Positions 54,390 to 56,438 of a stretch of DNA of 64,000 bases are shown here, piece after piece. Numbering within the stretch: the stretch's first letter is position 1; each line of letters opens with the position of its first letter. Source of the stretch: Cladosporium halotolerans (taxonomy: Eukaryota); assembly GCF_011745625.1 (NCBI RefSeq), contig NW_027191454.1, positions 1,116,001 through 1,180,000 on the forward strand, in the 5' to 3' direction. The notes beneath the pieces were generated by a model, which ran no database searches, was not told where the DNA came from, and was given only the letters and a program-made list of their open reading frames with translations. A program made the translations under genes and the position numbers.

Positions 54390-56438
54390 ATGTCTTCCAA
54401 GCCGAACGAGGAAGACATCCAGCTCCAGCACCGAGACCAGAAGCCAGATGACATCGGAGCTGAGACCATCGAAGCGATCGATACTGAGCCCGACAAACGT
54501 CAACCTCATGGAGACAAGGCTGCAGAGTTCCTCGAAGCCAACGCTCCAGCGCATGAGCATATCGTGATCACACCGGAAGACAATAAGCGTGTCTTGCGGA
54601 AGATCGACCTGGCCCTCCTTCCCATCCTTCTTTGCATCTACTTCTTGCAGTCACTCGACAAGACGGCATTGAGCTATGCTGCAGTCTTCGGCCTGATCGA
54701 GGATACCAACCTTGTGGGAGACCAGTACAGCTGGCTTGGTGCTATCGTCTATGTGGCACAGCTGGTATGGCAGCCGGTCGTTGCGTACTTCCTCGTCAAG
54801 CTCCCGACTGGCAAGTTCATTGCGACGATGGTATTCTGCTGGTAAGTCTATGGCCAAAGGAACTTCTTCCGGCCAAGCTGATTGGACCCAAGGGGCGCTG
54901 TACTCTGTGGCATGACTGCGTGCGAGAACTATGGTGGCCTGATGGCAACTCGCTTTCTGTTGGGATCGTTCGAAGCCAGCGTCGCTCCCACCTTCATCGC
55001 TATCGTCCAGATGTGGTACCGCCGGTATGTAGATGCTTCGTTGCGTAAGGACCAACGATTTTGGCAAGCCGTACTGACCTTTGGTGAACAGATCTGAGCA
55101 GACCAACCGCAATGCTGCCTGGTATGCCCAGCTGGGCGTTGTCAACATTGTCAGTCTGATTAGCCGTGCAGGCTGGAACACATGAGCTAACAAATCGACA
55201 GCTCGGCAGTCTTCTCAGCTACGGGCTGGCCCATATCGCGTCTAGTGCCCTCCGACCATATCAGATCATCTTCTTATTCTGCGGTCTCCTCACGGTCGTA
55301 TTCTCTGTGATAGTCTTTATCTGGCTCCCCGATTCACCCATGAAGGCTCGCTTCCTGACCCAAGAGGAGAAGCTGATTGCCATCGAGCGCCTCCGCATGA
55401 ACCAGCAGGGTATTGCCTCTGGCACATGGCGCTGGGACCATGTCTGGGAATGCTTGACCGACCTGAAGACCTGGATCTGGTTCTCGCTTTTGACCGCCGT
55501 CTCGATTCCGTCTGGTGGTATCACCACGTTCGGACCGCTCATCGTCCGCAGTTTCGGATTTTCCAGCTTCCAAGCTATTTTGTTCAATATGCCTGGTGAG
55601 CACATCTGAAAGATACGAATCTTGTCCACATGCTAACGATATCGCAGTATGCCTTCCTCTCATCCGTGTGCATGGACATCGATCGATACATTCATTCAAC
55701 GACTTCATATGCTCCGCTGTTAGAACAGAATTAGCTGACATATCGATCACAGTTCGGTGCCGTCCAGATCATCGCAACTCTCGGAGGCGCCTTCGCCGCC
55801 ACCCACTGGAAAGTCAAATCGCCCTTCCTCGCCGCCCTTTGCGTGCCGCCCATCATCGGCCTCGCCATCCTGCACTCTGTCTCTCACGACCCCTCCAACC
55901 GCGGCGTCTTGCTTTTCGCCTACTACATCACCTCAGTCTACCCAGCCATCAGCCCAATGATTTACTCGTAAGTTCCCACCTCCCCAAACCCTCCTGCCGC
56001 AGATCAGACCACTAAGGAGAAAATTCCAGCTGGTCCGGCCAAAACACCGGCGGCGACACCAAGCGCAAAGTGACCACCGGCGTGCTCTTCATCGGCGCCT
56101 CAGCGGGCAACATCGTCGGACCCCACCTGTACACGCCCGAAGAAGCGCCCCGCTACTACCGCGGTCTGCGCTCCAACCTCGCGCTCTTCGTCGTCATCAT
56201 CTTGCTCGTTGGCGTTGGAGTGTTGTATATCACGTACTTGAATAAGAAGCATGCGGCTGCGAGAGAGAGGATGGGCAAGTCGGCGCATATTGTCGATCTG
56301 TCGATGGCGAAGGGCTCGAGGTTGGCGGATAAGGGGGCTTTGGAGGGCGAAGATGGGAAGGTTGGGGCTGGCGTTGGGGATAAGGCGTTCGAGGATGTGA
56401 CGGATTTGAAGAACGAGGACTTCATTTACGTCTTGTAA
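54390..56438 (+). CDS. MFS anion:cation symporter (Dal5/allantoate permease family), 6 exons
   Basis: LRKIDLALLP, LDKTALSYA, RFLLGSFEA, WYRR/SEQ, LPDSPMKARFL, NTGGDTKRK, AFEDVTDLKNEDFIYVL. One junction needs a twin intron. Confidence 0.93.
55595..55752 (+). other. [D1,2] spliceosomal twin intron (stwintron)
   Basis: Internal intron 55596-55647 (GTGAGC...GCTAAC...CAG) splits the external donor G|TATGC; external intron ends GCTGAC...CAG at 55752. Confidence 0.82.

Follow-up and report, generated by a model that had tools for sequence, protein, structure and literature searches.

Work on spliceosomal twin introns (stwintrons) reportedly goes back to founding papers of 2013 and 2015. For the donor-disrupted type, [D1,2], two-step excision and its intermediate have been shown by RT-PCR in Aspergillus, where the internal introns measure 52–53 nt and the intermediates were cloned and deposited (PMC5639578). 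In the Xylariales, two-step intermediates of many stwintrons have been shown by SRA reads, and the same source describes 288 [D1,2] stwintrons of similar sequence from 14 Xylariales, with more than 100 in one Hypoxylon genome, and uses the term missplicing for a one-step splice that leaves one G (PMC12403724); more than 100 Hypoxylon stwintron host genes are covered in PMC9024468. Some [D1,2] stwintrons are hosted by genes for transporters of the major facilitator superfamily (MFS), and in Table S1 of PMC12403724 "major facilitator" is mentioned 27 times, "MFS" 14 times, "permease" 9 times and "allantoate" not at all. Among transporters, PMC8469720 names one for oligopeptides and one of the AzgA family. 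Within the passages of PMC5639578, PMC12403724 and PMC8469720 that were covered, and with family names that vary between such tables, no report of a stwintron in a Dal5-like gene was found; the novelty of a Dal5-like host at the level of the gene family is tentative at best and of little consequence.

Here we describe a block of 158 nt at positions 55595–55752 of a 64-kb window (the whole stretch of DNA that was analyzed), which very probably is a [D1,2] stwintron that is removed in two steps. Its nearest counterpart in anatomy is the stwintron in the putative lipase gene of A. nidulans and A. niger, in which an internal U2 intron likewise splits the external donor after its first base (G1/U2; Flipphi et al. 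2017, PMC5639578). Both have an external intron of ordinary size, an apparent GG start and a downstream exon that bars the alternative route, whereas host gene and taxonomic class differ (the lipase stwintron is from Eurotiomycetes), and the intermediate was cloned there and is inferred here. With the sister [D1,2] stwintrons of Hypoxylaceae and Xylariaceae the block shares a lineage-specific position, a seamless fit into the exon and an MFS host (PMC12403724, PMC8469720, PMC9024468); its internal intron of 52 nt compares with 74–95 nt in four Xylariales rows (PMC12403724).

The permease gene and its surroundings

The gene that carries the block and the elements to which we refer below are as follows.

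54390..56438, forward strand: Dal5/allantoate-permease-like MFS transporter gene, ATG to stop, 6 exons, 552 aa (spliced model)
54842..54892, forward strand: intron 1, 51 nt, GTAAGT..AAG (joint in RNA contigs of X9 and X14; splice signals)
55025..55091, forward strand: intron 2, 67 nt, GTATGT..CAG (joint in RNA contigs of X9 and X14)
55150..55201, forward strand: intron 3, 52 nt, GTCAGT..CAG (joint 55149/55202 in X14)
55202..55594, forward strand: exon 4, ending ...FNMP with CCT at 55592–55594 (sequence, homologues, RNA joints)
55595..55595, forward strand: G1 of the split donor of the external intron (absent from mature RNA, present in DNA contigs of X15 and X18)
55596..55647, forward strand: internal intron, 52 nt, GTGAGC..GCTAAC..CAG (sequence; separate excision predicted)
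55648..55752, forward strand: remainder of the external intron, 105 nt (106 nt with G55595), TATGC..GCTGAC..CAG (sequence; 3′ boundary fixed by the RNA joint)
55753..55967, forward strand: exon 5, beginning FGAVQIIATLGG (sequence, homologues, RNA joints)
55968..56029, forward strand: intron 5, 62 nt, GTAAGT..CAG (joint 55967/56030 in X9 and X14)

The spliced model contains a single stop, which is terminal, and aligns end to end, with 73% identity, with the homologue P0010, a 543-aa "putative transporter" of Pseudocercospora fuligena. The Pfam model MFS_1 (PF07690) matches exon 4 with an E-value of 2.1e-07 and 30.6 bits, which for this fragment lies under the cut-off of 33.4, and reaches 91.8 bits on P0010. 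The top NCBIfam model is TIGR00893 ("2A0114"), which we take to stand for TC 2.A.1.14, the anion:cation symporter group that includes yeast Dal5; its score of 163 bits is below the cut-off of 395. Many homologues carry the source name "allantoate permease", and the nearest named ones (78–80% over exon 4) come from Baudoinia, Elasticomyces, Friedmanniomyces, Pseudocercospora, Septoria and Zasmidium, which places the fungus among the dothideomycetes, close to Mycosphaerellales/Capnodiales. A search for solved structures with P0010 gave 0 matches. By its MFS fold and best similarity the protein is assigned to the Dal5/allantoate permease family, with allantoate or a related anion as its putative substrate.

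Further downstream, a gene for the ubiquitin-related modifier Urm1 on the reverse strand converges on the 3′ end of the permease gene; its last exon lies at 56973–57104 and ends ...STLHGG (PF09138, E 9.5e-18). It is followed by a gene on the forward strand (57786–59591) with a COMPASS Shg1 domain (PF05205, E 7.6e-25) and, behind the domain, a long low-complexity tail rich in Arg, Glu, Asp and Ser.

Nested splice signals and joints in RNA

At the boundary between exons 4 and 5 the letters are exactly those given by the first-pass annotation, i.e., ATG CCT up to 55594, then G55595, two nested units and, from 55753, TTC GGT GCC. The internal intron has the donor GTGAGC at 55596–55601, the branch element GCTAAC at 55632–55637 and the acceptor CAG at 55645–55647, while the external intron has the donor G/TATGC, which is contiguous after internal excision, the branch element GCTGAC at 55734–55739 and the acceptor CAG at 55750–55752. 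The distance from the branch A to the 3′ end is 11 nt in the internal and 14 nt in the external intron. As had been proposed, removal of the internal intron rebuilds a canonical donor from G55595 and TATGC (GTATGC) for the external intron, which has a branch element and an acceptor of its own. Both units match the fungal donor/branch/acceptor consensus GURWGY / RYURAY / YAG as quoted in PMC12403724, and their sizes of 52 and 106 nt compare with 51–67 nt for the other introns of the gene.

Every GT or GC donor in 55500–55639 was combined with every AG up to 55800. No single GT/GC-AG splice in this range restores the conserved frame ...LFNMPFGAVQ.... The AGs within the block end at 55647, 55723, 55728, 55734 and 55752, and the enumeration upheld the earlier statement that a splice from 55596 to any of these five produces a frameshift or a stop; the sole open in-frame acceptor for this donor, at 55786, would delete FGAVQIIATLG, 11 conserved residues. 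All of the 120 homologues listed read LFN[MI]PFG... across the junction with no gap, and the predicted protein junction FNMP/FGAVQ fits every one of them. Since the homologues are contiguous here and no single canonical splice gives this product, the block that is removed must be exactly 55595–55752 and must begin with GG.

Two details of the sequence around the internal acceptor deserve mention. The last 10 nt of exon 4 (55585–55594, CAATATGCCT) match, in 9 of 10 positions, a stretch made up of the internal acceptor and the 7 nt that follow it (55645–55654, CAGTATGCCT), with a start-to-start spacing of 60 nt, and the transcript after internal excision would read TATGCCT-G-TATGCCT. By a post hoc estimate that allows for the constraints of the splice signals, such a direct repeat has a chance of about 1 in 1000. 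An origin of the internal intron by target-site duplication was considered for this repeat and rejected, because the sequence past the second copy is not the continuation of the exon; none of the insertion models tried accounts for the repeat. Furthermore, the G of the internal acceptor and the following TATGC form a contiguous canonical donor, CA/GTATGC, at 55647 in the unspliced transcript, so that the sequence of the external intron is present twice, in overlap (55647–55752).

Four of the 23 runs listed with the gene were compared over 54600–56200, namely X9 and X14 (RNA, from different studies) and X15 and X18 (DNA), all of them as assembled contigs, which drop rare forms. Both RNA runs join 55594 directly to 55753 and skip the 158 nt (contigs of 1686 nt in X9 and 463 nt in X14). 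The ends of this joint are GG..AG, 215 letters lie on its shorter side, and there is no alternative placement ("both" = 0). The mature RNA thus has the junction 55594/55753 that had been predicted as an apparent GG-AG intron; G55595, the retention of which in mature cDNA had been named as evidence against a stwintron, is absent from the RNA contigs of both runs. The mature RNA reads ...FNMP/FGAVQ..., as is conserved across the homologues examined. The X9 contig skips 54842–54892, 55025–55091, intron 3, 55595–55752 and 55968–56029, and the X14 contigs have the same five joints; since both runs likewise lack the other four introns, the contigs represent mRNA and not DNA. The joints of these four introns are GT..AG in four of four cases in X14 and in three of four in X9. 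The exception, the intron 3 joint of X9, is listed as 55149/55205 with GT..TC and three letters, CTT, in between where the window has CTC at 55202–55204, and is read as the same joint as in X14 plus a one-letter strain polymorphism, not as another acceptor.

The direct joint also bears on the idea that the block consists of two separate introns flanking a micro-exon, a pattern that does occur. In L053, a more distant Dal5-like gene, a match to the [D1,2] letter pattern at 2365–2502 was taken up as a possible second stwintron and rejected, because the frames show two ordinary introns of 50 and 52 nt around a 35-nt micro-exon at 2416–2450 (YAMNGITNIVG.). Since L053 mimics the pattern, letters alone are insufficient and the RNA joint decides. 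In the permease gene nothing lies between 55594 and 55753 in the RNA contigs, which refutes the micro-exon, and the homologues read across the junction without additional residues; a pair of ordinary introns therefore has hardly any chance of being the right description.

An extra G at 55595 through an assembly or sequencing artefact had been named as the second finding that would speak against a stwintron. All that speaks for it is the general expectation of 1-nt errors in short homopolymers. The DNA contig of X15 (118 kb, depth 33.8) has 0 differences from the window over 54600–56200; X15 is possibly the source sample of the window itself and hence perhaps not independent, with possibly the same reads, but it is a separate assembly made by a different assembler. 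In X18, a related strain of about 96% identity from another study, there are 27 substitutions and 6 gap letters over 55415–56200. This strain retains the insert, with listed indels in it at 55666 and 55678 and none at 55595, and among the 22 of its 27 substitutions that are displayed there is no listed change in a donor, branch or acceptor element. With X15 identical and X18 keeping the insert without an indel at 55595, no 1-nt assembly error is apparent and one is unlikely; the artefact is largely refuted and its probability is negligible.

A related objection is that the RNA-source strains carry an ordinary intron with one G fewer, while the GG allele of the window is frameshifted and mis-spliced. 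It draws on the fact that the RNA (X9, X14) and the DNA (X15, X18) come from different samples, so that GG at the boundary in the RNA-source strains is a probable reading. Yet X18, the more distant strain, lists no indel at 55595, and the RNA contigs resemble the window more closely than that strain does (X9 has 11 differences in the part compared, the X14 contigs 95% to over 99% likeness). In addition, the gene in the window is otherwise intact, with 552 aa and a single terminal stop. We regard such a difference between strains as very improbable.

This leaves the manner in which the block is removed. One possibility is a one-step, non-canonical splice that uses GG at 55595 as the 5′ splice site together with the acceptor at 55752, the nested signals being incidental. 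It agrees with the RNA contigs insofar as these show the final GG..AG joint only and no intermediate. However, nested canonical signals in exact register are very unlikely by chance. The strict [D1,2] pattern (G + GTRNGY..RCTRAY..YAG + TRNGY..RCTRAY..YAG), searched on both strands, has one match in the window, exactly at 55595–55752, as compared with a mean of 0.01 and a maximum of 1 in 100 dinucleotide-preserving shuffles of the window, and when the interior of the block was shuffled with its ends fixed, a nested branch site, YAG and TRNGY were obtained in 3 of 5000 trials. Besides, the strong donor GTGAGC 1 nt downstream would be expected to out-compete a GG site, and a two-step intermediate was found in every experimentally examined case of this architecture that is reported in the covered passages of PMC5639578 and PMC12403724. 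A one-step splice is accordingly improbable, if somewhat less so than a difference between strains.

In the two-step excision that we favor, the U2 spliceosome would first remove the 52-nt internal intron (55596–55647), whereby G55595 would meet T55648 and the donor GTATGC would be created; the 106-nt external intron (G plus 55648–55752) would then be removed, joining CCT (Pro), which ends at 55594, to TTC (Phe) at 55753. We infer the order of the two splices from the anatomy of the block and from the established work on the class and do not read it from the RNA, because contigs only were compared and the joint 55595/55648 is not among them. Two other first steps appear possible in the pre-mRNA but are predicted to be unproductive. 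A single splice from 55596 to 55752 would leave the G and shift the frame, and this reading would meet a stop at its residue 488; the splice corresponds to the one-G missplice of the Xylariales sister stwintrons (PMC12403724), which from the sequence may occur here as well. A splice from the contiguous donor CA/GTATGC (55647) to 55752 would leave 52 nt that carry an in-frame stop and lack an acceptor; given the T at the start of the next exon, this route leads nowhere. In its contiguous donor, formed by the G of the internal acceptor and the next letters, the block is like the alternatively spliced [D1,2]/[A2,3] stwintrons, but unlike in these its downstream exon begins with T and not with the required G (PMC5639578, PMC5587772). 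The first-pass annotation had excluded the [A2,3] route on this ground, and rightly so: the route needs a downstream exon that starts with G (PMC5639578), and because exon 5 begins with T (55753) it cannot give the observed mRNA.

Relatives and the origin of the nested pair

Orthologues were surveyed by scanning metagenome contigs with the homologue alignment, which yielded 80 loci, 77 of which cover the junction while three end before it. In 76 of these 77 the MP/FG junction is contiguous in DNA, without an intron. The remaining locus, L028, has an ordinary intron of 51 nt (1293–1343, GTAAGT..GCTGAC..TAG) that lies within the Pro codon, 2 nt upstream of where the window has its stwintron, and shows no similarity beyond 12 nt to the other loci. 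In a quick maximum-likelihood tree (IQ-TREE), the window is sister to a 13-row group within a 14-row clade (SH-aLRT 99), and L028 falls inside a subgroup (SH-aLRT 97) in which the site is empty in all five other members. This empty site, ATGCCN/TTYGG, is seen in 11 of the 12 loci of the clade; with just 74–82% nucleotide identity to the window, the clade loci belong to other species. At the lipase position, by comparison, a standard intron is present in early-diverging classes (PMC5639578), whereas no relative examined has an intron exactly at the permease position. From these sequences, the stwintron of the window and the intron of L028 would most economically be read as two independent gains a few bases apart; a loss of introns from many lineages may also account for the pattern, less economically.

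Intron content in the clade of the window is fluid. In all 12 clade loci (L001–L005, L017, L021–L025 and L028) exon 4 is interrupted by a short intron after roughly its 31st codon, aligned to about 55295 of the window, for example at 2606–2648 of L017; in L001 it is in frame and stop-free, and it is absent from both the window and X18. Intron 5 of the window, in turn, seems to be absent from L017.

The position of the block and its neighborhood call to mind the introner-like elements of Capnodiales (Collemare et al. 2015, PMC4457414), which come from the same broad fungal group, are lineage-specific and lie at sites that are empty in relatives; the intron of L028, 2 nt away, resembles the parallel gains within a 15-bp window that were reported for these elements (PMC4457414). 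Introner-like elements are canonical single introns in many copies (PMC4457414) with a predicted stable structure or inverted repeats (PMC8469720), and in this the permease stwintron is unlike them, as it is a nested pair for which neither copies nor a stable structure were detected. When the 158 nt and both of the units were compared by blastn with the 64-kb window and with 296,514 nt of 80 related loci, only matches of 9–15 nt at chance level (E at least 0.5) were obtained. The predicted fold of the 158 nt has a minimum free energy of −28.5 kcal/mol as compared with a shuffle mean of −32.6 (z = +1.19) and is not more stable than the shuffles. Within 55400–55950 there is no Rfam match at E-values up to 1. 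The block contains weak internal inverted repeats of 8–11 nt, none of them at its 5′ end, and neither terminal symmetry nor complementary near-terminal repeats were seen in it. The Xylariales sister stwintrons, on the other hand, form families of similar copies that show terminal symmetry or have complementary repeats of 10 nt near their ends (PMC12403724, PMC8469720). Without copies, a stable fold or an Rfam match, the permease stwintron lacks the hallmarks of these sister stwintrons within the scope of the window and the 80 related loci.

It seems rather doubtful that the nested pair was gained at an intron-free site by ongoing propagation of introns or stwintrons in a Capnodiales-like dothideomycete, with further [D1,2] stwintrons, possibly related in sequence, elsewhere in the genome. 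Should this be the case, the 9-of-10 direct repeat, whose two copies enclose G55595 and the internal intron minus its final three bases, could be a trace that the arrival of this intron left behind. Such a gain, if true, would for the first time point to [D1,2] propagation beyond the Xylariales, and the MP/FG codons would be a hot spot of parallel gain, with an ordinary intron 2 nt upstream in another lineage.

Consequences for annotation and intron evolution

The permease gene contains a genuine new [D1,2] stwintron of a rare, already described intron type, and its end product is backed by RNA. The known mechanism of stwintron splicing is not changed by this case. Because automatic gene callers accept GT/GC-AG introns only, the permease would be mis-modeled by them, with a truncation, a frameshift or the loss of conserved residues, and the locus offers a clean, RNA-backed case for training and testing the annotation of nested introns. 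For the evolution of introns, the case adds a [D1,2] stwintron where 76 of the 77 relatives examined have no intron, in a group of fungi from which introner-like elements are known. A related lineage independently has an ordinary intron at a distance of 2 nt, and the two make up a small natural system in which the origin of nested introns may be studied.
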